IMG/VR virus record: IMGVR_UViG_2740892439_000018 | Length of the DNA: 16,746 nucleotides | DNA from: a virus | Lineage: Duplodnaviria > Heunggongvirae > Uroviricota > Caudoviricetes | Direction: 5' to 3' (one strand) | Shown here: in pieces, positions 689 through 15,861 of the stretch | Position numbering within the stretch: position 1 is the stretch's first letter | Layout: each line of letters opens with the position of its first letter | Program-made: the position numbers and the translations under genes | The notes under the pieces: model-generated | The model's database searches: none | What the model was told of the DNA's origin: nothing | The model's input: the letters and a program-made list of their open reading frames with translations, nothing else

Positions 689-692
689 TAAA

Positions 693-714
693 ATGACTGC
701 ACCACTGACTGCAC
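693..714. repeat. 22-bp arm-type repeat TGACTGCACCACTGACTGCACA (left arm), internally a tandem ACTGACTGCAC pair
   Basis: Exact 22-bp match with 15611-15632 in the same orientation; lies 5 bp inside attL. Confidence 0.6.
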
Positions 715-1037
715 ATAAGCACGAACGAAACCGAACAATAATAAATAGAATAGATACCTGCCAGTGGTTATGTCTCCGCAGTGATGTGTTTTTTCATTTT
801 TAATGGGGATAAAAACGGTGTGGTGAGCGGTCCGGAAGACGCCATGGCAAGAGTTTTGCCCCGCTTCTCCCTGTGCATGATAGATAACCGAGGGCGGAAT
901 TCCGCCTTCGGTGCTCACATATGAGAAATAATATTTCGTCCACCGATACCCTTTATTTGGGTATCGCGAGTAAGCCCCAGAATCTGGGTGTTACTCTTAC
1001 TACCCAAACTACGGGTAGTTTCCGTAGTTTCATGGTC

Positions 1038-1106
1038 GAGTTGCAGATCTGCAACTCACCCACCAGCCAACCCATTTTGGGGCTGTCGGGAATATCAACC
1101 AGTTAC
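1038..1106. repeat. Structured non-coding repeat unit A: 20-bp perfect palindrome GAGTTGCAGATCTGCAACTC (1038-1057) followed by 44-bp conserved block (1063-1106)
   Basis: Palindrome verified; 44-bp block matches 1367-1410 at 36/44 positions, including CCAGCCAAC and TCGGGAATATCA.C.AGTTAC. Confidence 0.55.
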
Positions 1107-1348
1107 TGACAATGCTCTGGGCGTTCTGTCTAGCTGGTGGCTGTGGCTGGACGCTAATTTTTGCGTACCACTTTTGCGCACTTTTTCAGGGTCGGATTTC
1201 AGATCCCCACCATTCTGGGAGCAGTTGCAGGGGCCGAATAAATCAATAGCCGTGCTGGTAACGTTTTGCATGACAAGTTTTGACAGTTTTTTATCTTCCG
1301 GCCTCCTCAAAATTGAGGATTGAAGAAAAGTCAATGGGTTAGGTCATC

Positions 1349-1410
1349 GTGCAAATTTGCACTATGCCAGCCAACGCAATTTTGCGTTATCGGGAATATC
1401 AGCAAGTTAC
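1349..1410. repeat. Structured non-coding repeat unit B: 14-bp perfect palindrome GTGCAAATTTGCAC (1349-1362) followed by 44-bp conserved block (1367-1410)
   Basis: Same architecture as unit A about 300 bp away, in the same orientation. Confidence 0.55.
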
Positions 1411-1697
1411 CGCCGCAGTCGTTCCGGCTTCTTCCACTGGTAAGTATTTTTCGCGCTCTCCCTCCGTTGTTGAGAACGGCGACGGTATGCCAGCAACTCA
1501 AGGACTCTGGTTCGTATGTTGCGCATATCCACGCCGTTAAGCTCAATACCGTCACGGCGCATCACCTCAGCCACCACACGCGCGTAATTTTCGGCTATCA
1601 CGCTGTCCGGCTGTGTAGCCTGTTCGTCAGGCTGCTGACTGATTCCGGTAATGCGGCGAATTATTTTTAGTAGATCAGTTTCAGTCATTCTCGTCAT
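1407..1697 (-). CDS. Hypothetical protein, translationally coupled to terL (ATGA overlap)
   Basis: 96-aa ORF whose ATG (1697-1695) overlaps the terL stop TGA (1696-1694); N-terminal two-thirds protein-like, basic C-terminus looks odd. No recognised family. Confidence 0.35.
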   Translation of the reverse strand: MTRMTETDLLKIIRRITGISQQPDEQATQPDSVIAENYARVVAEVMRRDGIELNGVDMRNIRTRVLELLAYRRRSQQRRESAKNTYQWKKPERLRR

Positions 1698-3355
1698 ACC
1701 CCATCAAACGCCGCAAGTCGCTCTTTGTGGCTGTCGCTCATATCAAATGCAAATTCCTCATGCTCTGCCTGGAATGTGCCAAACGCCATCAGCGCCGCAA
1801 CGCTCGGGTCTATCTTGTTGGATGATTTTTTCTTGTTCGGCTTGATATTGGCGTTCGCGTCACTCTGCATCACAACATTACTCATTGACCAGGCCAGCAC
1901 CGGATCACCACGATGCACAATCACCTTCCGGTTAACAAAAACTTCGAACGATTTCGCCGCCGGACTGAAACGAAGGTATGTTTGCGGGAACGGCTCCACC
2001 TCAAATCCTGCCCCCTGTAGCTGCGTCCTCAGGTGCGTGGCGTTCCATGTATCGAAGCCCACCAGCCTGATATTGAAATTCTCTGCATCCGCCATGATGT
2101 CATCACGGATACGGTCATAATCAATGCAGTCACCCGGTGTTGTGCGTATCCAGCCCGCCTTTACCCACTGGCGATAGATGGCGCGGTTTTTATTGGCGGG
2201 GTTCTGTAGCTGAAATTCCGGCAGATAGTGACGGGAAACCAGCATAATCTTTTTACCGACCGGAAAGGCATAGCACACGCTGGAAATATCGCTGGTTGAT
2301 GATAAGTCCAGCCCCGCGTAGCACTCCTGCCCGTATAAATCCGCCTCCGCGAACGTTCCGGCGCACTCCGCCCATGCACCGTTACCCATCCACGGCGTAG
2401 CCCCCTGACACCAGATATTGAATCGCTTGGTGAGCATTTCCACCCACTGCGACGGAATACCCCGCGCTTTCTGGATGGTTGAGGCCAGTTTTTCACGATC
2501 GACGGAAACATCGATATTTGGATTCGCCTTTATCCACATCGCCGGATCGTCAACCTCGCTTTCATCATCCAGCTCGTAAATCAGAACGAACATGGATTCG
2601 TTCATCTCTTCACCATCCAGTATCTGACAGCAATAGTCATAGTGTTGTTTACAGGCTGAAACAACGTTGCTCCCCGATGTGGTGATGGCAAATAACAGCC
2701 CCTCCGGACGCGCCCCCATCCCCAGCTCAAGTGCGGAATAAACCCCGTTGTCTGGGTGCAGGTGATATTCATCCACAATGGCAAGACTCGGGTTTGTCCC
2801 CTCAATGGTTGCCGCTTTTGCTGCCAGTGGCTTTAACAGGCTGTTGGTTTTCGGGTGTATCACCTTGTGCGCCTGAATATTTACCCGCTTTCGTAACGGT
2901 CGGGATAAAAGGCACATCTGACGCGCATCATCAAACACGATCCGCGCCTGATCACGACTCACGGCGGCGGTGTAAATATCCTGCTGCCCGTTTTCCATAA
3001 CCAGAAACCAGTTAGCCAGGATAGCGGCGACCGTGGATTTGGCATTTTTTCGCGGTACTTCAATGAATGCGCTGGTGTATTTGCGCCGTCCGGTGGCCTT
3101 AACCTTAAAGCCCAGGATGCAGGCAAAGGCGAACTGCTGCCACGGCTCCAGTTCAATGGGACTACCGCGCATTGCGCCTTTTACGTGCGGACACACCCGG
3201 GAAAAGGCAATAAACCGCTCCACGACCTCCGGATCGAACGTGTAAAGGGAGTTTTCAAGGTCAGAAAAATACCGTTTAACGGCCTGTTTCAGTCGTTTAC
3301 AGGCCGTAATTTTGCCGTTTTTTACGCCTTCTGCGTACTCATGCCAGGCGGTCAA
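1694..3355 (-). CDS. terL: Terminase large subunit (TerL)
   Basis: 553-aa product with a terminase-type N-terminal ATPase region and C-terminal nuclease region; follows terS with 17-nt overlap. Start appears to be TTG at 3355 preceded by GAGGAAGAGG Shine-Dalgarno. Confidence 0.92.
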   Translation of the reverse strand: MTAWHEYAEGVKNGKITACKRLKQAVKRYFSDLENSLYTFDPEVVERFIAFSRVCPHVKGAMRGSPIELEPWQQFAFACILGFKVKATGRRKYTSAFIEVPRKNAKSTVAAILANWFLVMENGQQDIYTAAVSRDQARIVFDDARQMCLLSRPLRKRVNIQAHKVIHPKTNSLLKPLAAKAATIEGTNPSLAIVDEYHLHPDNGVYSALELGMGARPEGLLFAITTSGSNVVSACKQHYDYCCQILDGEEMNESMFVLIYELDDESEVDDPAMWIKANPNIDVSVDREKLASTIQKARGIPSQWVEMLTKRFNIWCQGATPWMGNGAWAECAGTFAEADLYGQECYAGLDLSSTSDISSVCYAFPVGKKIMLVSRHYLPEFQLQNPANKNRAIYRQWVKAGWIRTTPGDCIDYDRIRDDIMADAENFNIRLVGFDTWNATHLRTQLQGAGFEVEPFPQTYLRFSPAAKSFEVFVNRKVIVHRGDPVLAWSMSNVVMQSDANANIKPNKKKSSNKIDPSVAALMAFGTFQAEHEEFAFDMSDSHKERLAAFDGV

Positions 3356-3695
3356 GTTCGTCCTCTTCCTCTGTTTCCGGTGGATTTCTGCGACGGCTTA
3401 CCGGGTCAAAACCCAGCAAAGAAGCCATTTTGATCATTATTCTTTCTGCGTCAGCCTTTGCGCTCAGTGCGGGGTTTCTGCTCTCGCTGCCCTGACTGTT
3501 AACAATGCTGAACCCGCGCGTCGCAAGGTCTTCGACGGCTTTGCGGTATATGGAGTAGTTAACACAATACAGTTCCAGATTGCTCCAGTCGGCGGGGGTA
3601 AGGTCTTCCCGCCCGGAAAGCTGGCGCGATTTTTCCTTCCACTGCCTGACCGCGATTTCATCCAGGTAAGCGGGGGCTTTTGGTGGTCTTGCCAT
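3339..3695 (-). CDS. terS: Terminase small subunit (P27-like TerS)
   Basis: MARPPKAPAYLDEIAVRQWKE... resembles P27-family small terminase; immediately upstream of terL. ORF-track start at 3740 is a TTG; first ATG is at 3695. Confidence 0.82.
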   Translation of the reverse strand: MARPPKAPAYLDEIAVRQWKEKSRQLSGREDLTPADWSNLELYCVNYSIYRKAVEDLATRGFSIVNSQGSESRNPALSAKADAERIMIKMASLLGFDPVSRRRNPPETEEEDELDRLA

Positions 3696-3746
3696 GTTCT
3701 TTTTTCGCCCAATTATTTTCAAAAAAATTACCGTGCACAAAAATTT

Positions 3747-3805
3747 GAGGGGGCGGTCGGTGTCCGGCAGGGACGGTTTCGTCCTGAAAACCCCCCCCCC
3801 CCCCC
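3747..3805. other. GC-rich block plus C15 homopolymer between HNH and terS; candidate cos/packaging site
   Basis: GAGGGGGCGGTCGGTGTCCGGCAGGGACGGTTTCGTCCTG (3747-3786) then 15 consecutive C (3791-3805); sits where HNH-dependent cos phages place cos, upstream of terS. Confidence 0.4.
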
Positions 3806-3983
3806 TCTGACGGCCTCACCAGCGATTGCGAAAACATTCCATGACCTCGCGGTCACGGTCGGTTAATCGCTTCGCTGTGGTGCGTTTTGTGCGCCCTGTC
3901 CTGTTGGCTTTGTGCTCTGTCTCCTGTGTCTTCCATGTGTCACGCTGCCTTATCAGTCCACGTATCAGCTGGTTTGCTCCTGT

Positions 3984-4424
3984 TCAGTCATCATCGCCAT
4001 ACATCCAGTCGTTACGGTGTGCCGCCCGTTCTTCCTGCTCGCGATACATGCCCGCTTTACGGTTTGCTTTCGTGGCTGGATCTTCCCGTGTCGTCTTACG
4101 GTTGTGGCACGTCTGGCACAATGCCTGGTGATTCCACTCAGGCCAGAAGAGAACATCACCGCCGCCATTGATGGGAATGATGTGATCCACCACAAGAGCT
4201 GGCGTATAAATCCCCTTAGCCAGACAACGCACGCATAACGGGTTTTTGCTCAGGTACAGGGCGCGGTATTTGTCCCACTGTCGGGAATACCCGCGCGCGC
4301 GGCGGTGTCCCCGTCTGGCATCCTCTGCACGCCATGCAGCCCGCCTGTGCTCTTCACACTTGCCGGACTTCACGCGCTTATTACAGCCAGGCTCAGTGCA
4401 TCGCCTTAATGGTTGCCACGGCAT
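3984..4424 (-). CDS. HNH endonuclease (phage packaging-associated)
   Basis: 146-aa product with Cys-rich N-terminus (CTEPGC...C..C) and HNH core ...LVVDHIIPINGGGD...NHQALCQTCHNRKT; AGGGGTG Shine-Dalgarno; overlaps connector stop (TGATG). Confidence 0.9.
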   Translation of the reverse strand: MPWQPLRRCTEPGCNKRVKSGKCEEHRRAAWRAEDARRGHRRARGYSRQWDKYRALYLSKNPLCVRCLAKGIYTPALVVDHIIPINGGGDVLFWPEWNHQALCQTCHNRKTTREDPATKANRKAGMYREQEERAAHRNDWMYGDDD

Positions 4425-4726
4425 CAGTACACCCCTACGTCACGATAAACTGACCAGAGCGCAGAAATAGCCATAGGCAGTTCCGAGTGCTCCACTGGTG
4501 AAACCGCTTCCCGGTTCTCGTACAGGAAAGCGATGTACATCAGGCAACCAACACGCATTGCCGGGGTAAATTCCAGCCCGTCTTCAAAACGTTTCCCGAT
4601 ATGCTTCTGGCAGGCTTCCAGCGCCGCATCGGTATACATTTTCAGAAGTTCGCCTTCACCGGATAAATCATCATCAAGTCGAAGATGTGCCCTGACTTCA
4701 TCAGGTGTAATTCTGGCTTCACTCAT
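4424..4726 (-). CDS. Head-tail connector / DNA-packaging protein (gp6-like)
   Basis: MSEARITPDEVRAHLRLDDD... resembles the N-terminus of gp6-type head-tail connector proteins; GGGAGA Shine-Dalgarno before ATG 4726; 8-nt overlap with portal stop. Confidence 0.65.
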   Translation of the reverse strand: MSEARITPDEVRAHLRLDDDLSGEGELLKMYTDAALEACQKHIGKRFEDGLEFTPAMRVGCLMYIAFLYENREAVSPVEHSELPMAISALWSVYRDVGVY

Positions 4727-5933
4727 CTTTTCTCCCTTTAATTTCCACAGTCTGTTTCCATGCCTGGCTGAACTCATCACCACCTTCACGCGGCGGCATA
4801 CCCTCACGCTCACGGGCTTCGTTCGGATTCATGATCCCGTTCTTAATCCCTTTCTCATACGTGGCATAACGTTCGGTGGGTGTGGCGCGTAATAAATCGG
4901 CTGAATCAAACTCAACCAGATAACGGGTACCAGGTACGGGAGAAGCCACCAGCAAAGCGGCCTTGATTTGCTGTTCGAAGTTCGCCAGCCACGGGCGCAT
5001 TGTCATGGTCAGAAACGCGCGGCTTGCCTCGCTGAAATTGCTGTAGGTGCTGTTGCTGTATTCCTGCAGAAAAATAGGCGATACGTTGAACATGCGGGCG
5101 ATGTCTTCAATGGAGAAGCGACGGGAGGCCAGCCATTCCGCATCCTGGTTACTCATTCCCAGTTGCCTGTAATCCATGCCCCCTTCAAGGATTGGCGTTT
5201 TTCCGGCATTTTTCGCCCCCTTGTAGCGTTCCAGAGCATCCAATGCCTGTTTACCTTTCACGCCGTCCAGCCATTCGCCTGACGTGATAATCCCTGCCGC
5301 CATCATGCCATCTTTCATAATGCTGGCTCCGTGGCGCTGTTGAGCAAGGCCAAGCCCAAGTGCCTCACGGCAAATCGTGACGGGGGAGCGCCCCAGAAAG
5401 CCATCATCCGAGGCATAGCGGAGATGCAGAACTTCTTCCTGTAAATACGTGCGCACCGTTCCTGTATAGGGTTCGGTGATGGTATAGCGGTATTTGTGTG
5501 CGCCTGTGCGTTCCGGTACAACACACCCCGGCGCATAAGGATGAAGTGATTTTGGCTGCCCGTCCTGCCCCCACTCAATAACCGCATAGGCGTTACCGTT
5601 CAGCAGGCAGTGACGCATCATTGTGCGTTTAAACTGGTAAGGTGTCTGGCACGAATTAGGCTGCTCATTCAGCAGAATATCTACCGGGTGACTGTCCAGC
5701 CATTCCCGCGCCTCCCTGCCCTTGTCATTACGTACCAGATACAGATAACACGGCATCGTGGCCACCGCCTCAGCGATGACAGAAACCGCATTCATCACTG
5801 CAGGCAATGATTCAGCCGTCCCGGCAGAAACATATTCTCCGGATCCGGTATTCGGTACGCCGGACAGCGCCAGAAAATCATCAATGGACAGGTTACGCTG
5901 CTCGCTTTTTTTACGACTAAAAGGCCACCACAT
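4719..5933 (-). CDS. Portal protein (HK97 family)
   Basis: Portal-like blocks (LPAVMNAVSVIAEAVATMPCYLY, NEQPN, LLNGNAY, IARMFNVSPIFL, RPWLANFEQ); first ATG at 5933, 1 nt after protease stop. ORF-track start 6023 is TTG. Confidence 0.92.
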   Translation of the reverse strand: MWWPFSRKKSEQRNLSIDDFLALSGVPNTGSGEYVSAGTAESLPAVMNAVSVIAEAVATMPCYLYLVRNDKGREAREWLDSHPVDILLNEQPNSCQTPYQFKRTMMRHCLLNGNAYAVIEWGQDGQPKSLHPYAPGCVVPERTGAHKYRYTITEPYTGTVRTYLQEEVLHLRYASDDGFLGRSPVTICREALGLGLAQQRHGASIMKDGMMAAGIITSGEWLDGVKGKQALDALERYKGAKNAGKTPILEGGMDYRQLGMSNQDAEWLASRRFSIEDIARMFNVSPIFLQEYSNSTYSNFSEASRAFLTMTMRPWLANFEQQIKAALLVASPVPGTRYLVEFDSADLLRATPTERYATYEKGIKNGIMNPNEAREREGMPPREGGDEFSQAWKQTVEIKGRKDE

Positions 5934-5934
5934 A

Positions 5935-6495
5935 TCACAACCCCGCCAGCTCAGACCAGCGATGACGATTATTTCCTGTCGGGCATAATTCAGGGTGCTG
6001 TGCAAACAACGAACGGTGGGCAATCTCCACGCCAGATTCTGGATAAGCAGGCATCGACGTTATTGTGATTTCACGGAGTTCAGCGGCGGTTACGGTACGC
6101 AAATACGGTTTTTGCGCGATACTCCACTCCTCGCATAATGCGCGAAAACCAAAGCTCATTCCTGTAATGTCGCCACGCTCCACCAGCGTAAGCACATCTT
6201 TTCCAAGCTGGGTATCCGGCGGTGTCAGTTCAAAACGTAACCCGGTGTTATCCTCAGTCAGTACCAGAGTGCCGGATTTGGTGCGCCCCAGCAGTTGGGT
6301 ATAGTCATGCTCATACAGGCAGCGCACATCATTACCCGCCGCCAGATAGTCAGCAAAAGCCCCCGGCGTGAACTGTTCGCGGAATTCGTCCCAGATAATT
6401 TCTGAAAGGCTGTTCCAGCGAACGGCATACCCCACCAGCTTTTTATTGCTGGCGGTCAGTTCAGATGTGCGGATTTCAAAATCGGTGTTTTTCAT
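5935..6495 (-). CDS. Prohead maturation protease (HK97 family, S78/U35)
   Basis: 186-aa product with GYAVRWN...FTPGAF...EHD...LGRT...EDNTGLRFE...GMSFGF pattern typical of HK97 prohead proteases; GGAG Shine-Dalgarno 7 nt before ATG 6495. Confidence 0.9.
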   Translation of the reverse strand: MKNTDFEIRTSELTASNKKLVGYAVRWNSLSEIIWDEFREQFTPGAFADYLAAGNDVRCLYEHDYTQLLGRTKSGTLVLTEDNTGLRFELTPPDTQLGKDVLTLVERGDITGMSFGFRALCEEWSIAQKPYLRTVTAAELREITITSMPAYPESGVEIAHRSLFAQHPELCPTGNNRHRWSELAGL

Positions 6496-6515
6496 CGGTG
6501 TACTCCATAAAGCTG

Positions 6516-6537
6516 AAAAAGGAGGCCGCAGCCTCCT
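6516..6537 (-). terminator. Intra-operon hairpin / partial terminator between capsid and protease genes
   Basis: Stem AGGAGGC (6520-6526) / GCCTCCT (6531-6537), 4-nt loop; on the minus-strand transcript it is followed by UUUU (plus-strand AAAA 6516-6519). Confidence 0.5.
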
Positions 6538-6549
6538 CCTTACTCATGA

Positions 6550-7717
6550 CTAGCCAGCTTTCATTTCCAGAATTTTGATGGCGTTTGAATCCACCACACC
6601 ACCGCCCAGATATTTATCCGTGTGGACCTTGTAGAATCCGGGTTCAGTAATGTTGTCCGGTCGGGTGCGAATCCCTGTTACATGATCAACGATGAAATAA
6701 CCACGACTGAAATCGCCAACCGCTAGCGGTGCTTTTCCTGCGCCGATGTCCGGCATGGACTCCAGGCAGTAAACAGGACGACCAAGCAACATATCCGGCG
6801 CACCTTCTTTAAGGCTGTCGCGCCAGATATAATCGCCGTTCTCATTTTTCAGCTTCTGTAGTGTCCCTGCCGTGCCCGAGTTCATCACCCAGACGGCATT
6901 TTTGCGGTATTTCGCTTTCAGCTTGTAGAGAATGTCGATCAGTTCGTCCGCTGTAATGGCGGTTCCACTTGCCGCTACCATTTTTTCAATGGTGCCAAAA
7001 GCGCGGGTTTTGTCACTGGTCGCCGCACGGGTGTAAGCATGAAGCCTTTCGGCTTGCCGTTACCGTTGCCATTAACAAAATCATCCTCTTCGGTGCTGGC
7101 GAACGTGTCGGCAATTTCGGAGGATAACCAGCCAGAATATCCACCTCTGAAAAATCTAGGATTTCCTGCGTGGTTTTCGGGTAGGCGTAGATCGGGTTCA
7201 GCTTGATGGTTACGCGTTCAATTTTCGGGGTGTTGGTTTCACTGCGTGCGCTGCCTTCTGTGCCTCGTCCTACAGTTGCGCCGCCAGTGGAAACCAGTTT
7301 CTGAAACTCATTTGATTTTGCAGTCTTCACGGTCGCGATCACGCGCATAACACTGTCATCCTGTAGCTGGCGCATGACTTCGCGATCAAGCTCAGGAATT
7401 ACGGTATATCCGCCATCCCTGCCGCTGTCAGTGCTGGTGGACAGAGATCGCACATCTCCGGTTACGATGTAGTTACGCAATTCATCAGATGATACTTTCT
7501 GGATGCCCGTTCCTGGCTTGCTGCGTTCTTCATCAGCCACAGACTCGAGGCGGGAAATGTCTGTATCGAGGGAATCAGCTTTTGCACGCAGTTCATCAAA
7601 CTGTTTGCCCTCGTCATCGTTCAGGCTGCGGTTTTCACTGTCGGCTTTTTCCAGCAGGGATCGCATCTGGTTTTTCAGGGCGTTTTTTTGCTGGCGGAGC
7701 TCGATTAATTTCTTCAT
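6550..7717 (-). pseudogene. Major capsid protein (HK97 family), disrupted by two single-base frameshifts
   Basis: N-terminal frame 7717-7013 (coiled-coil delta-like region then TIKLNPIYAYPKTTQEILDFSEVDILAGY); a third frame across about 7125-7035 reads SSEIADTFASTEEDDFVNGNGNGKPKGF; C-terminal frame 6981-6550 reads AYTRAATSDKTRAFGTIEKMVAASG...MKAG. Hand translation puts the shifts near 7119-7126 and 7036-7043. Confidence 0.85.
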
Positions 7718-7964
7718 GAAGGTTTTCTCGTATTGGTTAAGATTCAGGACGTGAAACCAACACGGAGGGAGCGCCGCCCGACACTCTCGGCATCTCGCAG
7801 ATCAACCCGGCATCGCGCAGGGGATCGGACGGCAACAGTGGCGGCTCACGTCTGAGTGCCACTATTTAAGATATGGATCAAAAAATTGATGTAAATAAGG
7901 TATTTTTGTTACGAACAGTCTTGAATGTTAACACACAAATAATTTACAAAAATGCTGATAAACT

Positions 7965-8741
7965 ATGGAGATTCAAGTGACAAAAGAAATTCTTGCTGTT
8001 CCTGGGATGCGACCATCCCCATTGTTCAAAAGGACTTATAAATTAGTTCGGGAGATTGACGAAAGATTAACCAAACTGATTCATAGATGGCGATTTTTCA
8101 ATGCAGGCCCCCCCATGAAAGTTACTGCATATGATGGAACAGAAATATGCTATCAAGGTTTGGCATTTAAAGGTACTCCCGTTCAAATTTTTTGGAATGG
8201 TTTTATCGATCCTTACATTGAAAATAACTCAGAAATTGTTTTAGAGCAGACCTCCGCGTTAGCAATTGAATGTCAATTCTCAATAGAGGAGTCAATCGAG
8301 GAGGCTAAATTACTATTACTTGTGATGATTCGCAGGCTTTACTATGAAATGGCCGAAACAGATAAAATATTAAGAGGTGATGGGTTTTCCTTCCCAGAAA
8401 AAAAAGACGTTAGTGGTTATATTGAAAGTATCTCTCAAAAAATCATAGAACATGCTGAAATTGAAAAGCTAAAAAAAACGCATCCAAAACAAAACATATT
8501 CAACATAGCTACTGTAAATAGCCAATACGTACAACTTGGTACAAATAACAATATTAATATACAAGAGCTCTCTGAGTTCTTCTCAAAAATTGCATCAACT
8601 GGTGAAAAAGAAATTATTACTCTCTCAAAAAACCTTCTTAAGAAGGCCTACTCAAAAAACTTACTGAGTAAAGAAAACTATGAAGCTCTAATATCAAACC
8701 TTAACACACAGACAAAATACACTTTCAAATCTACTAGTTAA
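7965..8741 (+). CDS. Hypothetical protein (258 aa), AT-rich accessory gene, unrecognised family
   Basis: Long ORF on the strand opposite to every other island gene, visibly AT-rich; possible alternative GTG start at 7977 preceded by GGAG. C-terminal module NIFNIATVNSQYVQLGTNNNINIQEL...KNLLKK shared with the next gene. Confidence 0.75.
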   Translation: MEIQVTKEILAVPGMRPSPLFKRTYKLVREIDERLTKLIHRWRFFNAGPPMKVTAYDGTEICYQGLAFKGTPVQIFWNGFIDPYIENNSEIVLEQTSALAIECQFSIEESIEEAKLLLLVMIRRLYYEMAETDKILRGDGFSFPEKKDVSGYIESISQKIIEHAEIEKLKKTHPKQNIFNIATVNSQYVQLGTNNNINIQELSEFFSKIASTGEKEIITLSKNLLKKAYSKNLLSKENYEALISNLNTQTKYTFKSTS

Positions 8742-8770
8742 ACGCAAAAGCGATCACGAGGAGCAACATA

Positions 8771-9280
8771 ATGGATCTTAACGTCATGGCATATCCAGAA
8801 AAATTCACAATCGCAGGAGTTGAATACAAGGGGAAAAGAAACTCAGCTGAAAAAAAAGTGCTAATCCCTTATACTGAAGAACCAGATATTAATATTGGAG
8901 ATGAAATCACTCAAAAACTAGGGAAGGGGGAAATAATATTAAAAGTAATTGATATGTCATTTTTACCAGGAGGTACACTCAATGTTGGTACTAATCACCC
9001 TCACATGCTTACATTAAAAGTCGAGAATCTGACTGCTAATGAACATAAACCAAAACAATCTAGCCAAAATACATTTAACATTGGTAACATATCCGGTACA
9101 CAGGTTCAACTCGGTGAGCATAACAATCTTATTGTAAATCTCAGCATAACTGAACTTGTTGAAAAAGTTTCTCAATCACAAGATCCTCAGGCAAAAAATT
9201 TGCTTAAGGATTTACTAAATAATAGTACGGTAGCCAGTCTCGTTGGTGCTGGTGCGTCCGCCTTGTTAACAATGCTTTGA
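8771..9280 (+). CDS. Hypothetical protein (169 aa), AT-rich accessory gene with hydrophobic C-terminal tail
   Basis: Strong GAGGAG Shine-Dalgarno 7 nt before ATG 8771, 29 nt after the previous stop; motif NTFNIGNISGTQVQLGEHNNLIVNLS...KNLLKD parallels the upstream protein; ends ...STVASLVGAGASALLTML. Confidence 0.8.
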   Translation: MDLNVMAYPEKFTIAGVEYKGKRNSAEKKVLIPYTEEPDINIGDEITQKLGKGEIILKVIDMSFLPGGTLNVGTNHPHMLTLKVENLTANEHKPKQSSQNTFNIGNISGTQVQLGEHNNLIVNLSITELVEKVSQSQDPQAKNLLKDLLNNSTVASLVGAGASALLTML

Positions 9281-9281
9281 G

Positions 9282-9312
9282 TATATGGCCTGGCAAAGAG
9301 CCAGGCCATATA
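9282..9312. terminator. Bidirectional hairpin terminator between convergent genes
   Basis: Perfect 13-bp stem TATATGGCCTGGC (9282-9294) / GCCAGGCCATATA (9300-9312), 5-nt loop; AT-rich flanks; between the stop at 9280 (+) and the stop at 9315 (-). Confidence 0.7.
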
Positions 9313-9314
9313 AT

Positions 9315-9575
9315 TCATTTCTCACTCATCCAATTAGGAGGTAGTGGCATTTTTTTCCTTAAAACCTGCAAATGCTCAATCAAAACATTAACCTGCTCTT
9401 GATTTGTTGCAAGGATTTCATCTGATAGCGTGCTACGAATAAAATCATGATGGTCAATCCACAGTAAACCACCATTTGCAAGGGCCTGACGGTACTGAGT
9501 GGTAGGCATTGAAGCAATATCATGAAGTCCGAATTGATCAAAATAATTGTTTATTTCATGCGTCAGAATCGGCAT
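9315..9575 (-). CDS. Hypothetical protein (86 aa)
   Basis: ORF with AGGAAG Shine-Dalgarno upstream of ATG 9575; lies just downstream of the iteron region on the minus strand; no recognised family. Confidence 0.55.
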   Translation of the reverse strand: MPILTHEINNYFDQFGLHDIASMPTTQYRQALANGGLLWIDHHDFIRSTLSDEILATNQEQVNVLIEHLQVLRKKMPLPPNWMSEK

Positions 9576-9723
9576 TATTTCTTCCTATTTTATCTAATTT
9601 ATCTAATTTGTAGTCATTTTTAACCAGTATTCGGTCAAATCAAGCGCGTGTTTTTGTGTGCTTTACTGTCATAGTCTTTATCTCACAGCAGTAAATTAAA
9701 ATTTTTGCGTTTTAACCCTTCAC

Positions 9724-9946
9724 CTGTTCACCTTTTGATATTTTATCTTTTAATTCATAAGGTTAAGGGGTGAACAGTTTCACAAAAACTATTCACCAAC
9801 TGTTCACCACTGTTCACCCTTGAAGCTCAATAAACAATCAAAAAGGTGAACAGTGAATAGTTTGGTGAACAGTTCATAAATAACTGTTCACCCTATAATA
9901 TACTGATATAAAAGATATTTATGACAGGGTGAACAGTGGTGAACAG
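9724..9946. repeat. Iteron array (9 copies of GGTGAACAG / CTGTTCACC in both orientations); putative island replication origin
   Basis: Forward copies at 9769, 9845, 9864, 9928, 9938; reverse copies at 9724, 9800, 9810, 9884; embedded in AT-rich DNA immediately 3' of the primase-helicase stop (9960-9962). Confidence 0.72.
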
Positions 9947-9959
9947 TTATTCCATAAGT

Positions 9960-11777
9960 TTAATTTTTGCTATCGTCATTAGTGACCGATACACATGATG
10001 GCATCCAGTCTTCTGATTCCTCCGTCAGTGTCACGTTTGAACGCAAACCGTGCTTCGTTTTCCGTTTCATATACTCCCTGCCATATTCCGCCATTGCCCC
10101 CGGCATATCTTTACCGAAGCGCGTCAGTGTTACAGGTTTACCAAACCCATGTGCCCTCATATAAGCCAGATAGGCATGATAGAGATATCTGCGCGGGCTG
10201 AATGGCACAATTTCAGCATTACCCACTAACAGGCCATCACACATTACCGACGCCATGAGATAGCCGCAGAAGTCCACCAGCGAATCCCCCTCTCGCTTTA
10301 TCGCCAGTGCTTCTTCAGATTTCTGCTGCTCATATAACAGGCGTCTGGCTTCGTCCTGGTTAGCAAACCGTGTAAGCAGATGGCGAATCACTACCGCCAG
10401 CTCACCTTCTATTTTTTCCGCCAGCATCGGATCACGTTCGTTCTCCGGTACAACTTCCGAAAAATTGAATATCACCCGACGACGTGAGATCCCCCCGCTG
10501 CGGTCACTGAATGACATGGCGTTATTGTTAACCGCCAGCACTACTGCCGGAATACGCGTTGAGTAGGGAGCTTTGTGTTTCGGGTCAATTGCCACCTTGT
10601 CACCGCCTGTAATGGCCTTAATCCCTGCCCCATCACCAGCGTAGCGGGTCATATCCGGCATGATAATCAGAGAAAAGCCAACCACTAACGCACGTTCCCT
10701 TGCATCTTCCAGCGCCTTCATGCTTGCTGATACTGTATTAGCCTTACCCGCCAGCATGGTGCAAATCTCCGCCATTACGCTTTTACCGCTTCCACCAGGA
10801 CCAGTTACCTCAATGAATAACTGCCAGTCATATCTGTTCGCCAGCACCATGAATAATGCCGCCAGTACACGATCCGCTTTGCGATCATTCTCAGCCACCG
10901 AACGGTGCAACCACTTCCAGAAATTCGGCGCATGTGTTGCCAGCGTTTCCCCCTCTGCTGGTGGGCTGAAAGGTAATTCACTGGCAATTAACAACCAGTC
11001 GTTTTTGTTATGCTCCCGAAAATTACCTGTTCTGGTATCAAATACCCCGTTACTGAATCCAATCAAGTTACGGGCTGTATTCCCCATTACAGGCAAACTT
11101 AACTTCATGGTATCGACCGCTGATTTAATAGCGTTCTGTGAATAGCTGATCTCCGCATCAATGAAAATCTGCGCCATAGCACGCTGTAACTCTTTATCCT
11201 GAACCGGCTCCCATATAACGCCGTTGTAATGGTGAACAGTGTCAGAGTCAGCATGAATCGCCAGTTCACCACCATAATGTGCCAGGAGAACTTCGCCGCG
11301 TTGACTTGCTCCCATCTGGTTAAGCGCCAGTGATGAAGCGTTATCGTCTTTTACCCGCTCTTTTTTCTTTACAGGCAGTTCAACAACCTTTTTCTTTTCC
11401 GCCAGCTCTCCCCGCTCACGCTCCAGATATTCGCGCCAGTTCTCCCGTTTCTGGCTGTGCATTCCTTCAGGGTAATAATCAGCATCCCTGACACCTGCCG
11501 CTGCCAGTTTCTGCCCGATGGTATTAACAAGTCCCGGACGCAATAACCCCGCCTGATAGAGACGCACACGATAGCGTCCGTCTGGTACGATTTGCAGGTT
11601 GTCCAGTTCGGCAAGTTGTTGCTCTCCAAGCCAGACAGGTGGCACGTTATCGCCAGCCAGTCGCCCGTCCTGTTCCTGCCACTGCTTCGCATGTGCCCAC
11701 GCATCACTACCCGCAAAAATGATGACTTCCGTCATTTTGTCACGCGGTTGGTGTTTTAAATTTGGCGCTTTTTTCAT
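9960..11777 (-). CDS. Replication initiator: P4-alpha/D5-like primase-helicase (Pri-Rep) with Walker A GPGGSGKS
   Basis: 605-aa product from ATG 11777 (GGAGAGAG Shine-Dalgarno; ATGA overlap with upstream gene); central P-loop NTPase (VTGPGGSGKS...DxxxD) resembles D5_N/SF3-helicase replication proteins of P4-like elements; ori iterons abut its 3' end. Confidence 0.88.
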   Translation of the reverse strand: MKKAPNLKHQPRDKMTEVIIFAGSDAWAHAKQWQEQDGRLAGDNVPPVWLGEQQLAELDNLQIVPDGRYRVRLYQAGLLRPGLVNTIGQKLAAAGVRDADYYPEGMHSQKRENWREYLERERGELAEKKKVVELPVKKKERVKDDNASSLALNQMGASQRGEVLLAHYGGELAIHADSDTVHHYNGVIWEPVQDKELQRAMAQIFIDAEISYSQNAIKSAVDTMKLSLPVMGNTARNLIGFSNGVFDTRTGNFREHNKNDWLLIASELPFSPPAEGETLATHAPNFWKWLHRSVAENDRKADRVLAALFMVLANRYDWQLFIEVTGPGGSGKSVMAEICTMLAGKANTVSASMKALEDARERALVVGFSLIIMPDMTRYAGDGAGIKAITGGDKVAIDPKHKAPYSTRIPAVVLAVNNNAMSFSDRSGGISRRRVIFNFSEVVPENERDPMLAEKIEGELAVVIRHLLTRFANQDEARRLLYEQQKSEEALAIKREGDSLVDFCGYLMASVMCDGLLVGNAEIVPFSPRRYLYHAYLAYMRAHGFGKPVTLTRFGKDMPGAMAEYGREYMKRKTKHGLRSNVTLTEESEDWMPSCVSVTNDDSKN

Positions 11778-12073
11778 TTCTGCTCTCTCCACGCGGCAAT
11801 CATGTTTTTCAGTTCCTGTAGTTTTTTATCCACATCCACACGTGACACATGGTTATTTCTGGAAGGCGGGATTTCCCGCCGGAATCTGCAAATAAAGATC
11901 TCCACGTTCAGCGAGCTATGAAATGAATAGCCATCACGAATAAAGTACACACGGTCAAACATTATCGATTTTACTGTTACTCTGTTGCCGTTCTTATCCC
12001 GATAAATAGCGCCGGGGATAATTTTGGGATGTGCATAACCGCTGGCAGTCAAGCCAGATAAATACGTTCTCAT
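11774..12073 (-). CDS. Hypothetical protein (99 aa), coupled to pri-rep
   Basis: ORF whose stop overlaps the pri-rep ATG (ATGA); unrecognised family. Confidence 0.55.
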   Translation of the reverse strand: MRTYLSGLTASGYAHPKIIPGAIYRDKNGNRVTVKSIMFDRVYFIRDGYSFHSSLNVEIFICRFRREIPPSRNNHVSRVDVDKKLQELKNMIAAWREQK

Positions 12074-12079
12074 GATTAT

Positions 12080-12400
12080 TTATCCCCGATTTGAATCAGT
12101 ATTCGCTTTCTTTATGGCATTTAATGCATCTGTGGCATTTTCAATGGTGCACCGTAACGAAATATCAAAATGTCCAAGCATTGCCAGTAACAAACCGATA
12201 TTACCCATATCAATGCGCATGGCCTTTGCGTCATATTCCTCATTTTCTGACGCATGCCACATCAGGCTACCAATTGACGCAACAGCCATTGATATATTGT
12301 CAGTAGCCCCATCCGCAGCGGAATAAACCTTTTTAGCAATATCATGCTCACAGTTAAAATGCGGATTAATCAGGTACTGGTAATTTGACATATCAGGCAT
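12080..12400 (-). CDS. Hypothetical protein (106 aa)
   Basis: Strong AGGAGGTG Shine-Dalgarno 5 nt before ATG 12400; stop 6 nt before the next gene start; unrecognised family. Confidence 0.65.
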   Translation of the reverse strand: MPDMSNYQYLINPHFNCEHDIAKKVYSAADGATDNISMAVASIGSLMWHASENEEYDAKAMRIDMGNIGLLLAMLGHFDISLRCTIENATDALNAIKKANTDSNRG

Positions 12401-12596
12401 GGCGCACCTCCTTGCGGATACGGGCGGTGAACACCATCACGCAGCCAGCCGGGGATTGCTGGCGGGCTTCCTGTTCACTGGTGGCCACGATGGTAATCAC
12501 ACGCGGTTTTGCGGCGCTCAGGGCGATAAAACGCCAGGTGAATTTATTCAGGTTGTGCGAATCCCGCCCTCGCGGGTGTGTGGTATGATTTAACAT
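12393..12596 (-). CDS. Hypothetical small protein (67 aa), first gene of the minus-strand early operon
   Basis: C-terminal portion of a longer, mostly non-protein-like ORF-track frame; own GAGG Shine-Dalgarno before ATG 12596; stop overlaps the next gene start by 8 nt. Competing plus-strand ORFs make this uncertain. Confidence 0.4.
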   Translation of the reverse strand: MLNHTTHPRGRDSHNLNKFTWRFIALSAAKPRVITIVATSEQEARQQSPAGCVMVFTARIRKEVRHA

Positions 12597-12677
12597 AGCT
12601 ACCTCGATAATCTTGCTATCGTTGGTGGTTAGACGCCCTGCATGTGTTGCGAGCACTGCGGGGCGTTGCTCTTTTAG

Positions 12678-12723
12678 GTGTATTTCACCTTTGCTTTTTA
12701 ATTTACTCACTGGTGAAATACAC
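12678..12723. promoter_or_regulatory. Perfect 12-bp inverted repeat GTGTATTTCACC ... GGTGAAATACAC with 22-bp spacer; candidate operator in divergent control region
   Basis: Verified by reverse complement; located between the divergent starts at 12596 (-) and 12790 (+); a TATACT -10-like hexamer lies at 12754-12759. Confidence 0.45.
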
Positions 12724-12789
12724 TTCAAGCCTTTTTTTATCATTTTTTTTGCGTATACTGACATACACCAATTTTTAGGAGATCCAGAA

Positions 12790-12969
12790 ATGGCAACTGG
12801 TGCAAAGAACGCAAAATCACAAATGACAACTGTCAGAATCCCACATGAAGTAATGGATGATATTGAGCAACTTAAAGAACCTGGCGAAAGTACCGCTGGT
12901 TTTTTAGTTACTGCCGCAAAAGGCGAGATCAAACGCCGCCAGCGGCGCAAGGCCAAAGAGCAGGAGTAA
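12790..12969 (+). CDS. Putative ribbon-helix-helix (CopG/Arc-like) DNA-binding protein (59 aa)
   Basis: AGGAG Shine-Dalgarno 8 nt before ATG 12790; TTVRIPHEVMDDIEQL... fits the RHH beta-strand plus helix pattern; basic C-terminus. Confidence 0.5.
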   Translation: MATGAKNAKSQMTTVRIPHEVMDDIEQLKEPGESTAGFLVTAAKGEIKRRQRRKAKEQE

Positions 12970-13026
12970 CCATCACCAGCGCCGTGATGCGGTGAACTGT
13001 GGCGCACAGGGTTACAGGTATCTACG

Positions 13027-13206
13027 ATGACTGACAAATTATTAAAGAAATTATCCTCATCTAGGAAAAAACAACGCAAAAATGCGGTAAACGAACATGA
13101 ACCGGAGAGATTCGCACCATGTGCGTTTGTCCTTGAGAAGTACCTTAAAGAGTATTCCAGGAAAATATGCTTATTGCAGGCATGGCAACAAATCGATCCA
13201 GACTGA
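13027..13206 (+). CDS. Possible small protein (59 aa) downstream of the RHH gene
   Basis: ORF not in the supplied track (below its size cut-off), translated by hand as MTDKLLKKLSSSRKKQRKNAVNEHEPERF...QQIDPD; followed by a plus-strand terminator; weak Shine-Dalgarno. Confidence 0.3.
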   Translation: MTDKLLKKLSSSRKKQRKNAVNEHEPERFAPCAFVLEKYLKEYSRKICLLQAWQQIDPD

Positions 13207-13270
13207 TAGCATTGCCCACCAGCCGACAACCTGGTATTCTGGATATGCTCAAGTTTAGTGTTATGCCACT

Positions 13271-13298
13271 GGCGACCGCCCCCGGTCGCCTTTGTTTT
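13271..13298 (+). terminator. Rho-independent terminator (plus strand)
   Basis: Stem GGCGACCG (13271-13278) / CGGTCGCC (13283-13290), loop CCCC, followed by TTTGTTTT. Confidence 0.65.
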
Positions 13299-13315
13299 AT
13301 ATACCATAACTCACC

Positions 13316-13537
13316 TTACGCCGATTTCAGTTGTGCTTTGGGTTGACGATCAAGCCAATCATTAACCTCAGACAGCAACCAACCGACAGAACGAGCCCCC
13401 AACTGACGACGGGCTGGAAACACCCCTTTCCTTTCCATCATATAACGCGTCGTTCGGCAAATACCGGTAAGGCGTCGGCATTCCTCCTCACGAATGATGC
13501 GATCAAATTGGTCTTGCGATGATTTAACTTTGCTCAT
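13316..13537 (-). CDS. alpA: AlpA-family transcriptional regulator / excisionase-like HTH protein
   Basis: 73-aa product from ATG 13537: ...QFDRIIREEECRRLTGICRTTRYMMERKGVFPARRQLGARSVGWLLSEVNDWL matches the AlpA/prophage CP4-57 regulator pattern. ORF-track upstream extension not supported. Confidence 0.85.
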   Translation of the reverse strand: MSKVKSSQDQFDRIIREEECRRLTGICRTTRYMMERKGVFPARRQLGARSVGWLLSEVNDWLDRQPKAQLKSA

Positions 13538-13599
13538 ATGGATATGCCCTCGTTTATTATCGTTCGAGAGCATATTGATAATATGCTTAGAATATTTAG

Positions 13600-13630
13600 G
13601 TGATATCACATATTTTATATGTGATATCAC
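13600..13630. promoter_or_regulatory. Two copies of the 10-bp palindrome GTGATATCAC spaced 21 bp centre to centre, upstream of alpA; candidate operator
   Basis: Palindromes at 13600-13609 and 13621-13630 with AT-rich spacer ATATTTTATAT; the second overlaps the stop codon of the upstream 245-aa gene. Confidence 0.5.
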
Positions 13631-14364
13631 GTTCGCCCTAAGTATTTAGCCCACGTATTCTTATCTGTTGCGGGAAGAAACACCCCTTTCATCGCTGCCG
13701 CAGCCTCTAAAACAGCGATCACTTTAGCAACTGGAGCAGTTCCAATATCTATATCATCCATTTCTGGAATTAGTTTGATTAATGCAGGGATCAACTCAGC
13801 TTTCTTCGCAAGAGTTTTTGGCGATTCTCCCATTTTTCTTCCAGGCATGGTTCCAACATCTTTGATATGCTCCAAATCCTTAGCCATTACACATAAAAAC
13901 CTTCTGTCGATCTCAATAGCCCCATCACTCATAATTTGACATTCCCAGTTTTCTGATTCAGGACGAGTTGAAAAAAAAGATGATACTATCCTTGCATCAT
14001 TGCCAATAAATTCAAGTTCAGAAAAACTTTCCCGATTTAGATAGAAGAAACCGCAAAAATTCTTTGCAAGATAAGAAGCCACACCAAAATAATTTACCCA
14101 TTCAAAATCGCTACCAACAGGCTTCATCCCTGTAATTACCCAGCGATCCCCTTGCAACATCCCTCCAGAATCAACATCAATATTTTCAACTAATGATTTT
14201 GGTATAACTAGCGATTTACATGGATGACAGTTTGGAAAATAAACAGAAATATTCAAAGCACCTATAGCAGCAAAATGATATATATCATTAAGCGTACATC
14301 CCAGCTTCTTTGCTGCTTCAGGCAATGGATAATATATACGCTCAGGGATGCTTATCTTTTTCAT
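13627..14364 (-). CDS. Hypothetical protein (245 aa), AT-rich, translationally coupled to int; possible N-terminal HTH
   Basis: ATG (14364-14362) overlaps the int stop TGA (14363-14361); visibly lower GC than int; N-terminal LPEAAKKLGCTLNDIYHFAAIGAL resembles an excisionase/AlpA-type HTH; remainder unrecognised. Confidence 0.78.
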   Translation of the reverse strand: MKKISIPERIYYPLPEAAKKLGCTLNDIYHFAAIGALNISVYFPNCHPCKSLVIPKSLVENIDVDSGGMLQGDRWVITGMKPVGSDFEWVNYFGVASYLAKNFCGFFYLNRESFSELEFIGNDARIVSSFFSTRPESENWECQIMSDGAIEIDRRFLCVMAKDLEHIKDVGTMPGRKMGESPKTLAKKAELIPALIKLIPEMDDIDIGTAPVAKVIAVLEAAAAMKGVFLPATDKNTWAKYLGRT

Positions 14365-15584
14365 TTCGCTACCTTCAATATTTTTACATTTGAATACTGA
14401 CCAGAAATAACCTCAAGCCGTTCCATCCATTTATTTAGAGCGTCTAGTTTTTCTGGTAAGTACTGGCTACGATTGTATATGGCCATTACACCACCTAATG
14501 TGTGACCGAGAAGCTGTTCAACAACATGTGGTGCAATCCCCATGTTATTTAGTGTGGTAGCAAACGTCCTGCGCAGGTCGTGAAGTGTCCACGATTCAAT
14601 ATGCCCCAGACGCTTATATATCATCCTCCCCCATTGGCTGACAGCTTCTGGTTTCTTTATTTCACCCAACAAAAGACCTGAGTTTTTGTGTTGCTCTATA
14701 AGCTGTTGGATGAATGGGCGTATTACCACTGGAATAGGGCGCAATATCTTCTCTCCGCCTTTGCTGTGTTCTTTAGGCACTGTCCAGATCCAATCCTTTA
14801 AATCCCACTCTGTAATACGTGACAACCGAAGCTCCTGGGTTCGACATCCAAACACCACCAATAGACGCAACAACGATGAATAGTATGGTTTAAATTTCTT
14901 ACCTGAACATTCCTGCCAAATATCTGCTAACTCTTGACTGCTGTGTTCCCTATCGCGCTTATTCTGTTTTCTACCAACATCATCGATAGTCAGGTCATCC
15001 AGAGCATTGCTAACCGCATAACGATGTACGCGGCAAAACTTCAGAGCCTGCTTACACATCTGCAGCAAATAACCAGCTGCCACTGGAGCGTCATTCCTTA
15101 CTCTAGCGAAACACTCCAGCCAATGCCGGGTTTCGCACATTGATAACGGATAATCACCTATATAGGGGAAAATATGCTTCCTCAGTTGCTCAATGTGTTT
15201 ATCAACATTCGTGCGCTTGTAAACGGCGTATTCTCTGATCCAGTAATCCAGAGCCTCTTTTACCGTCACTGGTTTGAGTGTTTCATGTATTGCCACATTT
15301 AACCGATGCTTTGGATTTTTACCTTCAGCAAGCCATGCTCGACACTGTTCACGTTTCTCGCGCGCAGCTTTCAGAGAAAGATCCGGGTAGTTTCCAAGCT
15401 TAACACGCTGTGAATACGATTCACGCCCACCAATCCGGAAAGAGAAATACCAAGTAAGAACGCCAATTTTTGACACCTTGATACTCAATCCATCACCGTC
15501 AGCATAAAATCTATCTCTATCGATTTCCCTCCCCAGCATCTTACGCAACGATGTATCGCTTAATTTGTTCGTTCCTCCAGCCAT
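14361..15584 (-). CDS. int: Tyrosine site-specific integrase (P4-type)
   Basis: 407-aa product from ATG 15584 (AAGG Shine-Dalgarno); N-terminal MAGGTNKLSD... and C-terminal catalytic region ...WTLHDLRRTFATTL...VEQLLGHTLGGVMAIYNRSQY typical of P4-family integrases. ORF-track start 15665 is TTG. Confidence 0.93.
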   Translation of the reverse strand: MAGGTNKLSDTSLRKMLGREIDRDRFYADGDGLSIKVSKIGVLTWYFSFRIGGRESYSQRVKLGNYPDLSLKAAREKREQCRAWLAEGKNPKHRLNVAIHETLKPVTVKEALDYWIREYAVYKRTNVDKHIEQLRKHIFPYIGDYPLSMCETRHWLECFARVRNDAPVAAGYLLQMCKQALKFCRVHRYAVSNALDDLTIDDVGRKQNKRDREHSSQELADIWQECSGKKFKPYYSSLLRLLVVFGCRTQELRLSRITEWDLKDWIWTVPKEHSKGGEKILRPIPVVIRPFIQQLIEQHKNSGLLLGEIKKPEAVSQWGRMIYKRLGHIESWTLHDLRRTFATTLNNMGIAPHVVEQLLGHTLGGVMAIYNRSQYLPEKLDALNKWMERLEVISGQYSNVKILKVAK

Positions 15585-15610
15585 AGAAAACCTTAATTCA
15601 TATTGAAAAC

Positions 15611-15632
15611 TGACTGCACCACTGACTGCACA
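15611..15632. repeat. 22-bp arm-type repeat TGACTGCACCACTGACTGCACA (right arm, int promoter region)
   Basis: Exact copy of 693-714; lies 27 nt upstream of the int start and 127 bp inside attR. Confidence 0.6.
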
Positions 15633-15759
15633 CTTTAATATTACCCTATGAACAGAAATGAACAAAGGTAAACTAAAGAAACAACATTAATTATTTTATT
15701 CAATAAGTTATATAAACACTAACGAACCATGACAAACTGTAAGAAACATAGGTTTTGAT

Positions 15760-15839: not shown

Positions 15840-15861
15840 AGGTGTCACAAAGGGAGTGACC

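Follow-up and report, generated by a model that had tools for sequence, protein, structure and literature searches.

What binds a 22-bp sequence, TGACTGCACCACTGACTGCACA, that occurs once near each end of an integrated satellite? The question is raised by a 16,746-nucleotide stretch of DNA (IMG/VR virus record IMGVR_UViG_2740892439_000018; the whole stretch is called the window below), which represents the dusB-fis ... yhdJ region of E. coli, broken at the stop codon of fis by a 15.15-kb element (core to core). Both copies are very probably arm-type binding sites of the satellite's own tyrosine integrase (Int), as the initial annotation had proposed. The evidence that carries this reading is an arm-binding domain in Int, the presence of the sites in both arms at positions anchored to the crossover core, and covariation of the sites with the N-terminal domain of Int.

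A search of the window that allowed up to 3 mismatches returned exactly two matches to TGACTGCACCACTGACTGCACA, both on the + strand and thus co-oriented, at 694-715 and 15611-15632, and none of 200 dinucleotide-preserving shuffles gave any match (0/200). The left copy had been annotated as 693-714, which is 1 bp too low; the right coordinates stand, and so does the description of the repeat as a tandem in the same orientation in both arms, as each copy consists of two TGACTGCAC 9-mers, 12 bp apart and on the + strand. Identity around the copies reaches 25 of 26 positions (690-715 against 15607-15632). When at most 1 mismatch is allowed, the 11-mer ACTGACTGCAC is confined to positions 692, 704, 15609 and 15621, which reproduces the 12-bp step inside each copy. 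No additional degenerate half-site was detected in either arm with up to 3 mismatches, so the number of half-sites is exactly four (Table 1). The right copy stops 27 bp upstream of the int ATG (15584). An Rfam scan of the window returned no match, so there was no sign that the repeats belong to a structured RNA.

The distance of these sites from the point of crossover depends on where the core is placed. The element is bounded by an exact 80-bp direct repeat (609-688 and 15760-15839), which holds the last fis codons and the fis terminator. Other fis-inserted elements of E. coli share much less with the host: L003, L006 and L007 have only 17 bp in common with it (AATACGGCATGAACTAA), and L004 and L005 have only the 13 bp TACGGCATGAACT, the left copy of which turns the fis stop codon into TGA. 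The functional core can therefore be assigned to the 13-bp block within each 80-bp repeat (Table 1). The same consensus identity block has been described for the fis group of phage-inducible chromosomal islands (PICIs), and excision within it was shown experimentally for a Klebsiella fis PICI (PMC10111431). The core sequence differs from that of the half-sites, which lie outside the core in both arms. Counted from the 13-bp block, the gaps between pair and core are 68 bp in the far arm and 129 bp in the int arm; counted from the centre of the block, the pairs are 75 bp and 136 bp away. The spacings of 5 bp (left) and 127 bp (right) given earlier are right with respect to the 80-bp identity block, but misleading as distances to the crossover. 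The possibility that the repeat is just an extension of the identity block was rejected on the order of the parts, with the block preceding the repeat on the left and following it by 127 bp on the right. The 80-bp block also contains an exact consensus for integration host factor (IHF), AATCAAGCATTTA, at 637-649 and 15788-15800 (- strand); the copy at 637-649 is located between the core and the far-arm pair.

The arms were compared with those of related elements, about 45 in all, from Enterobacterales, Zobellella, Tolumonas, Photobacterium and Paraferrimonas, including relatives inserted at hpt and thiM. These comprised six further fis elements taken from E. coli genomes, 41 loci from one-genome-per-species contigs, which were collected with an alignment of five Ints, and one thiM-site (L049) and two hpt-site (L050, L051) elements. 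A family integrase beside the fis-type core ACGGCATGAAC, with the same doubled-motif architecture, was found outside the Enterobacterales in Zobellella (L037, L038, L047), and further fis-type cases came from Tolumonas (L041, L042), Photobacterium (L040, L045) and Paraferrimonas (L046). The published survey had found fis islands within the Enterobacterales only (PMC10111431).

The geometry of the sites is conserved across this set. Upstream of int, the best tandem period was 12 bp in 41 of the 42 loci, with a match of at least 9/10 in 40 of 42, whereas 9/10 or better was reached by 3.1% of 150-bp windows drawn at random from these loci, and by 0.9% with a period of 12. The int-side 9-mers begin at -152/-140 from the core in most loci, or else at -164/-152, always on a 12-bp grid. 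The -152 position is filled in essentially all of the roughly 40 relatives, and the same grid accommodates three units in L035 and four in L042. Because the offset between the pair and the int ATG varies from 1 to 108 bp across loci, the position follows the core and not the start of int. On the far side, the 9-mers lie at +82/+94 in the window, L002, L004, L015, L019 and L047, and at about +70/+82 in L003 and L006, so that at fis the +82 position is always filled. The far arm of L002 is identical to that of the window and does not count as an independent case for the far-arm position; the half-site at +81/+82 in L004, L015, L019 and L047 represents four elements with three motif types other than the window's. 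Wherever both ends were available (the window, L002, L003, L004, L006, L015, L019, L047, L049, L050 and L051), both arms carried the same motif type. For example, L049 has TGTGTGGTCAGT twice, 129 and 67 bp from its own 14-bp repeat at thiM, and the hpt-site elements have AGTGATACACC twice, about 137 and about 62 bp from their core. Away from the arms, these 10-40-kb loci are nearly free of the exact motif, with a few isolated single 9-mers. The check that had been suggested, a look for the motif at the arms of islands with the same integrase, found it in both arms of L002, L008 and L009, the flanks of which have diverged; islands with diverged Ints have another doubled motif at the same core-anchored positions, again in both arms. 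The fis, hpt and thiM satellites show one blueprint for the attachment site of the excised form (attP), namely four co-oriented half-sites on a core-anchored 12-bp grid, in which the half-site sequence alone varies.

This variation is considerable. Besides TGACTGCAC, at least 12 other types were seen among the fis, hpt and thiM elements: TGACTACAC, AGACTACAC, GTGATACAC, GTGATACCC, GTGACACAC, GTAGCGCAC, GTGTACACA, TGTTTATACA, (G)ATTACCCCAC / GTACCCCAC, (A/G)AACCCAC, AGTTACAC, TGACAAC and TGTGGTCA. The fis site of E. coli alone accounts for four motif types. In L002, which has an 86% identical Int and another replication module, the window motif is kept exactly within flanks that have diverged and acquired an indel. 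L049 matches the structural and replication backbone of the window from position 790 onward only, and has its own Int, core and doubled motif, from which it follows that the arms travel with int.

L049 is a capsid-forming satellite of E. coli A357 (NZ_CM163381.1) that separates rcnR from thiM; its 14-bp direct repeat, AGAAATACCCGTAT, lies at 3141-3154 and 18166-18179, approximately 95 bp upstream of thiM. We take its insertion point to be inside the thiamine pyrophosphate (TPP) riboswitch leader of thiM; an Rfam scan of L049, in which this locus is interrupted, gave no match.

Int and, usually, a winged helix-turn-helix (wHTH) protein resembling AlpA are the only proteins common to the elements. 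The window Int is a heterobivalent recombinase with an Arm-DNA-bind_3 domain (PF13356, E=1.4e-17), a central domain (PF22022) and a catalytic domain (PF00589) in Pfam. Residues 10-94 resemble the structures 3JTZ/3RMP (9.4e-8), and residues 17-95 resemble 3JU0 (9.3e-5), which places the N-terminal arm-binding domain at about residues 8-95, encoded at about 15300-15563. A start of int at the upstream TTG at 15665, which would put the repeat inside coding sequence, was considered and rejected: the N-terminus MA..NKLSD is conserved in all relatives, and the DNA upstream of the ATG diverges with indels that are not multiples of three.

The AlpA-like protein, acting as an excisionase or a transcriptional activator, is the other potential reader of the doubled motifs. 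Binding to direct repeats spaced by roughly one helical turn is typical of recombination directionality factors (RDFs), and the AlpA of CP4-57 is reportedly an activator of the neighbouring int. The window and most relatives have an AlpA-like gene, its sequence is lineage-specific too, and AlpA was listed among the possible binders of the doubled motif of the helper-embedded PICIs (HE-PICIs; PMC10111431). The two candidates can be separated in lineages where their histories differ. Identities are given here in the order Int N-domain (residues 1-95), Int C-part (110-400) and AlpA-like protein (RDF). L035 shows 57-58, 71-73 and 90-93% to L026 and L034, and the motif is different; to L004 it shows 77, 67 and 60%, and the motif is the same. 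Similarly, L037 and L038 (75, 92 and 98%) have different motifs, as does L019 compared with L002 and L014 (51-56, 70-72 and 79-80%), whereas L041 and L019 (59, 50 and 29%) have the same one. Motifs can therefore differ between AlpA-like proteins that are 90-98% identical, and be shared when the proteins are merely 29% identical. The three loci L031, L042 and L046 have the pair with no AlpA-like match within 4.5 kb of int.

Partial Mantel tests gave the same picture. With 36 dereplicated loci, the correlation of motif with the Int N-domain, given the C-part, was r = 0.49 (p ~0.0005), and that with the C-part, given the N-domain, was -0.02. Among the 32 loci with an AlpA-like protein, motif and Int N-domain remained correlated when the RDF was controlled (r = 0.64, p ~0.0005), whereas the value for the RDF, with the Int N-domain controlled, was -0.18. 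Of the 11 Int alignment columns most tied to motif class, 10 are at residues 24-26, 42-46 and 55-62, and in a low-confidence, single-sequence AlphaFold model of Int 1-105 (pLDDT 57) the motif-tied residues fall on predicted beta-strands and the intervening loop; the model gives a weak hint of a fold made of a beta-sheet plus helix. The hairpin YRLGGRGSKLER pairs with GTGATACAC in the fis-site element L019 and in the hpt-site elements L050 and L051, despite the different core. Natural pairs of hairpin and motif include GGRGSKLER with GTGATACAC, GGRT-AP with TGACTACAC and GGRES-SQ with TGACTGCAC. At the level of sequence comparison, these results show that the motif type tracks the N-domain of Int, and neither the AlpA-like excisionase nor the catalytic part of Int. 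The position of the sites, in both arms and at the outer edges of attP, also fits Int arm sites better than RDF sites, judged by the lambda, P2/186 and KplE1 systems. The data thus favour Int over AlpA as the probable binder, and we regard reading by the AlpA-like protein as improbable.

Several points weigh against the assignment to Int. The contact between the Int N-domain and the DNA is deduced from covariation and homology. Moreover, physical linkage joins int, alpA and the arms in the circular form; shared phylogeny therefore confounds most of the covariation, and telling the candidates apart depends on a handful of mosaic lineages. The sole structure model of the N-domain is of low confidence (pLDDT 57). 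Finally, a second, lineage-independent class of repeats, the phased RAAC sequences considered below, is also present in both arms.

Another potential role for the int-side copy is in transcription. If it were mainly an operator for int, with Int or another repressor bound to it, the far copy would be incidental or would serve another promoter, and the repeats would be needless for recombination. The proximal pair is 27-48 bp upstream of the int ATG, beside a -10-like hexamer (Table 1), and autoregulation of integrases through sites in the att arms has been documented for KplE1 IntS and P4 Int (PMC2951348). However, the pair keeps its place at -152/-140 from the core, and it is the spacing to the int ATG that changes. 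Conservation of position is just as strong for the far-arm copy (+82/+94), which lies downstream of a convergent operon and beside a terminator, where no promoter is expected; moreover, both copies always change together. A mainly transcriptional role for the repeats is therefore very improbable.

Autoregulation in addition to recombination is a different matter. As in KplE1 IntS and P4 Int (PMC2951348), transcription of int leads away from the neighbouring att, which confines the promoter to the recombination arm; in those two systems, the arm-type sites coincide with the -10 box or the transcription start, or are close to them. The int-side pair lies between the start codon of int and the one stretch that could hold an int promoter, and occupancy by Int there may also repress int. 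The hexamer TAAYAT is kept at its core-anchored position in the lineage of the window, a weak conservation, and if it is the -10 element, bound Int would cover approximately +1 to +25. Given the analogy to KplE1 IntS and P4 Int and this weakly conserved hexamer, autoregulation of int by Int is plausible as a secondary function, with chances that we put at roughly even. Unlike in KplE1 and P4, both the promoter and the repression are putative here; repression by Int has been measured for KplE1 IntS, P4 Int and other E. coli integrases (PMC2951348). The initial annotation had the right copy overlapping the int promoter. The copy does lie upstream of int, but the overlap could not be confirmed, as a scan of 15500-15860 detected neither a sigma-70 consensus promoter nor a terminator. 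This negative result counts against autoregulation, as do the placement of the pair, which is dictated by the core rather than by int, and the mixed reports, cited in PMC10111431, on whether AlpA activates the int promoter.

Near the start of int there is also an inverted core-like 9-mer, ATGAACT(A/G)A, which equals the last fis codons. In the window it is TTAATTCAT at 15594-15602, with 1 mismatch, and in most relatives (L002, L008-L019, L026-L034 and L043, beside the int ATG) it is TCAGTTCAT. It is tied to the int start and not to the core; in the int sense the sequence is ATGAACTGAGG..ATG, with an overlap with the Shine-Dalgarno sequence. An additional core-type site for Int and an element acting in translation are both conceivable roles.

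Least probable of all is that the repeat serves a host factor such as IHF or Fis, or another protein of the element such as the 245-aa or the DUF6387 product, or that it is a non-functional scar of tandem insertion: tandem elements or remnants do occur at fis, as judged from the sequence past the attR core, and capsid-forming lineages have a variable gene between int and alpA, but four motif types at the same E. coli site exclude a host factor, the satellites L003, L006 and L007 keep the doubled motif although they lack the gene between int and alpA, and a scar would not hold an exact 12-bp phasing and core-anchored positions across bacterial orders.

With Int as the preferred reader, a mechanism can be proposed. 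In the excised attP, the order is int, doubled site (15609-15632), 129 bp, core TACGGCATGAACT, 68 bp, and doubled site (692-715), with all four half-sites pointing one way. Int would act as a lambda-type heterobivalent recombinase: its C-terminal domains would bind the core at the fis stop codon, bring it into synapsis and cut it, while the N-terminal arm-binding domains of the tetramer, four in number, would each occupy a half-site of their own. An IHF-like bend and the phased RAAC/A-tract repeats probably fold the longer arm back. After integration, one pair would be left in attL and the other in attR, so that excision would need both pairs again, with the AlpA-like factor probably setting directionality.

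Two further features of the arms may be relevant to their shape. An IHF-like sequence, TATCAANNNNTTR, occurs at a conserved position of about -66 to -54 in the int arm; the match is perfect in L013, L014 and L017, against 1 mismatch in the window copy (15698-15710). RAAC(A) repeats (ATGAACA, CGAACA, AAAACA), which are similar to the core ATGAAC, are phased at ~10-11 bp over ~15646-15670, 15714-15747 and 722-740, that is, throughout the two stretches of the arm on the int side and in a portion of the far arm, and their position is conserved across lineages whatever the doubled motif. These repeats might be RDF sites, core-type-like Int sites or a source of intrinsic curvature, and together with the IHF-like site they could supply bending.

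The arrangement can be compared with known systems. The closest is that of the HE-PICIs, where attP has a doubled motif, tgTGTATTGCantgTGTATTGCa, twice in the same orientation, 81+/-2 and 132+/-2 bp away from its centre; Int arm domains, AlpA or an unknown protein were considered as binders, and the motif was not found in the attPs of fis PICIs (PMC10111431, NAR Genom Bioinform 2023). The present elements resemble the HE-PICIs in having an integrase of a sister clade, a tandem pair with a 12-bp period, and co-oriented copies in a short and a long arm. They differ in the motif, which is TGACTGCAC in the window and not the core sequence TGTATTGC of the HE-PICI motif; TGTATTGC was absent from all of the fis, hpt and thiM loci examined.

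In lambda attP (P1, P2, P'1-3), the long P arm measures ~150 bp, against ~85-100 bp for the short P' arm. As with lambda Int, the N-domain would read arm sites that are distinct from the core, and the arm sites are tandem direct repeats; the likeness extends to a presumed accessory bending factor and an excisionase. Unlike lambda, with its 2+3 sites, the satellite has 2+2, all co-oriented and with a strict 12-bp spacing, and it integrates at the 3' end of fis, which codes for a protein. The N-domain is of the DUF4102/Arm-DNA-bind_3 type (IntSXT/P4-like subgroup, PMC8138268) rather than the lambda type. It is homologous to the arm-type domains of the HPI (3JTZ/3RMP) and HAI7 (3JU0) island integrases, which, unlike the window Int, target tRNA genes.

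Arm-type sites decide whether and in which direction an integrase acts. The sites described here are of a known kind, newly described for fis-inserted satellites, and specialists in site-specific recombination will not be surprised by them; taken alone, the window is a well-behaved example of a textbook mechanism. The comparison, in turn, yields a natural table of Int N-domain variants matched to DNA motifs, which can be used for precise annotation of satellite ends, for predicting cross-mobilisation between co-residents, and as a start for engineering orthogonal integrases. The fis PICIs are very abundant, with 3565 fis-integrated islands mapped (PMC10111431).

A more speculative idea, which we consider rather unlikely but worth stating, is that the N-domain hairpin and both pairs form a swappable cassette, that it has diversified into at least 12 specificities in satellites competing for the fis attB and related targets, and that these define orthogonal "recombination incompatibility groups". 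Tandem residents at fis usually differ in motif type (Xenorhabdus, Edaphovirga and Zobellella loci). If the idea is true, each tandem resident would be excisable only by its own Int, and the natural pairs of hairpin and motif would constitute a readable protein-DNA recognition code for the design of orthogonal integrases.

A second doubled motif was seen 60-135 bp past the attR core, right after the displaced fis terminator, in L026, L028, L034 and L035, which are from Xenorhabdus, and in L032, L038 and L047. Such a motif beyond the attR core points to a second satellite in tandem, or its remnant, at fis. It is usually of another type than that of the adjoining element, which may reflect orthogonal arm specificities among co-residents.

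The element as a whole is a capsid-forming PICI of the fis PICI group. It has the insertion at the 3' end of fis, the identity block TACGGCATGAACTAA, int, alpA, a primase gene and the genes from capsid to TerS/TerL; tail genes are lacking, and its 15.15 kb compare with ~10-15 kb for fis PICIs and capsid-forming PICIs, the defining features of which have been described (PMC10111431; 10.1101/2022.09.08.507074). The main genes are all on the - strand and encode TerS/TerL, an HNH protein, a head-tail connector, portal, HK97 protease and major capsid protein, followed by a D5-type primase, an Icd-like product, the AlpA-like HTH protein, a 245-aa open reading frame (ORF) and Int. At least 80% of the window is present in 19 of 5426 complete E. 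coli genomes. Table 1 lists the features of the attachment sites and the genes for the two candidate binders.

Table 1. Positions of the core, half-site, promoter-like and binder-gene features in the window
Feature	Position	Strand	Remarks
attL core TACGGCATGAACT, last fis codons	611..623	+	inside identity block 609-688
Far-arm (P'-like) half-site 1 AATGACTGCACC	692..703	+	9-mer TGACTGCAC begins 82 bp past A of ACGGCATGAAC
Far-arm half-site 2 ACTGACTGCACA	704..715	+	9-mer at +94
alpA-like wHTH gene, likely excisionase/activator	13316..13537 (incl. stop)	-	rival candidate binder, largely ruled out
int, 407-aa heterobivalent tyrosine integrase	14361..15584 (incl. stop)	-	PF13356, PF22022, PF00589
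Int-proximal (P-like) half-site 1 ACTGACTGCACC	15609..15620	+	9-mer at -152 from core
Int-proximal half-site 2 ACTGACTGCACA	15621..15632	+	9-mer at -140 from core
Putative weak -10-like hexamer for int, TAATAT (int-sense)	15638..15643	-	adjoins proximal pair
attR core TACGGCATGAACT	15762..15774	+	inside identity block 15760-15839

Some features of the element lie away from its attachment sites. The major capsid gene of the window (6550-7719, - strand) is split into two ORFs, 7013-7717 and 6550-6981, both of which match PF05065. L001, which is 99.9% identical and 1 bp longer, has one intact capsid gene of 389 aa, which indicates a 1-bp frameshift in the window copy, either a pseudogene or a sequencing error. 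Just past the 3' end of the primase gene (9963-11792, - strand), the region 9744-9961 is dense in GGTGAACAGT-type repeats, both direct and inverted, and looks like the iterons or replication origin of the satellite. Between attL and the last of the late genes, where the left end is non-coding, a 44-nt direct repeat, CCAGCCAAC..GGGAATATCA.C.AGTTAC, occurs at 1063-1106 and 1367-1410, with 82% identity and 304 bp apart, and might be a packaging (cos/pac) or regulatory element.

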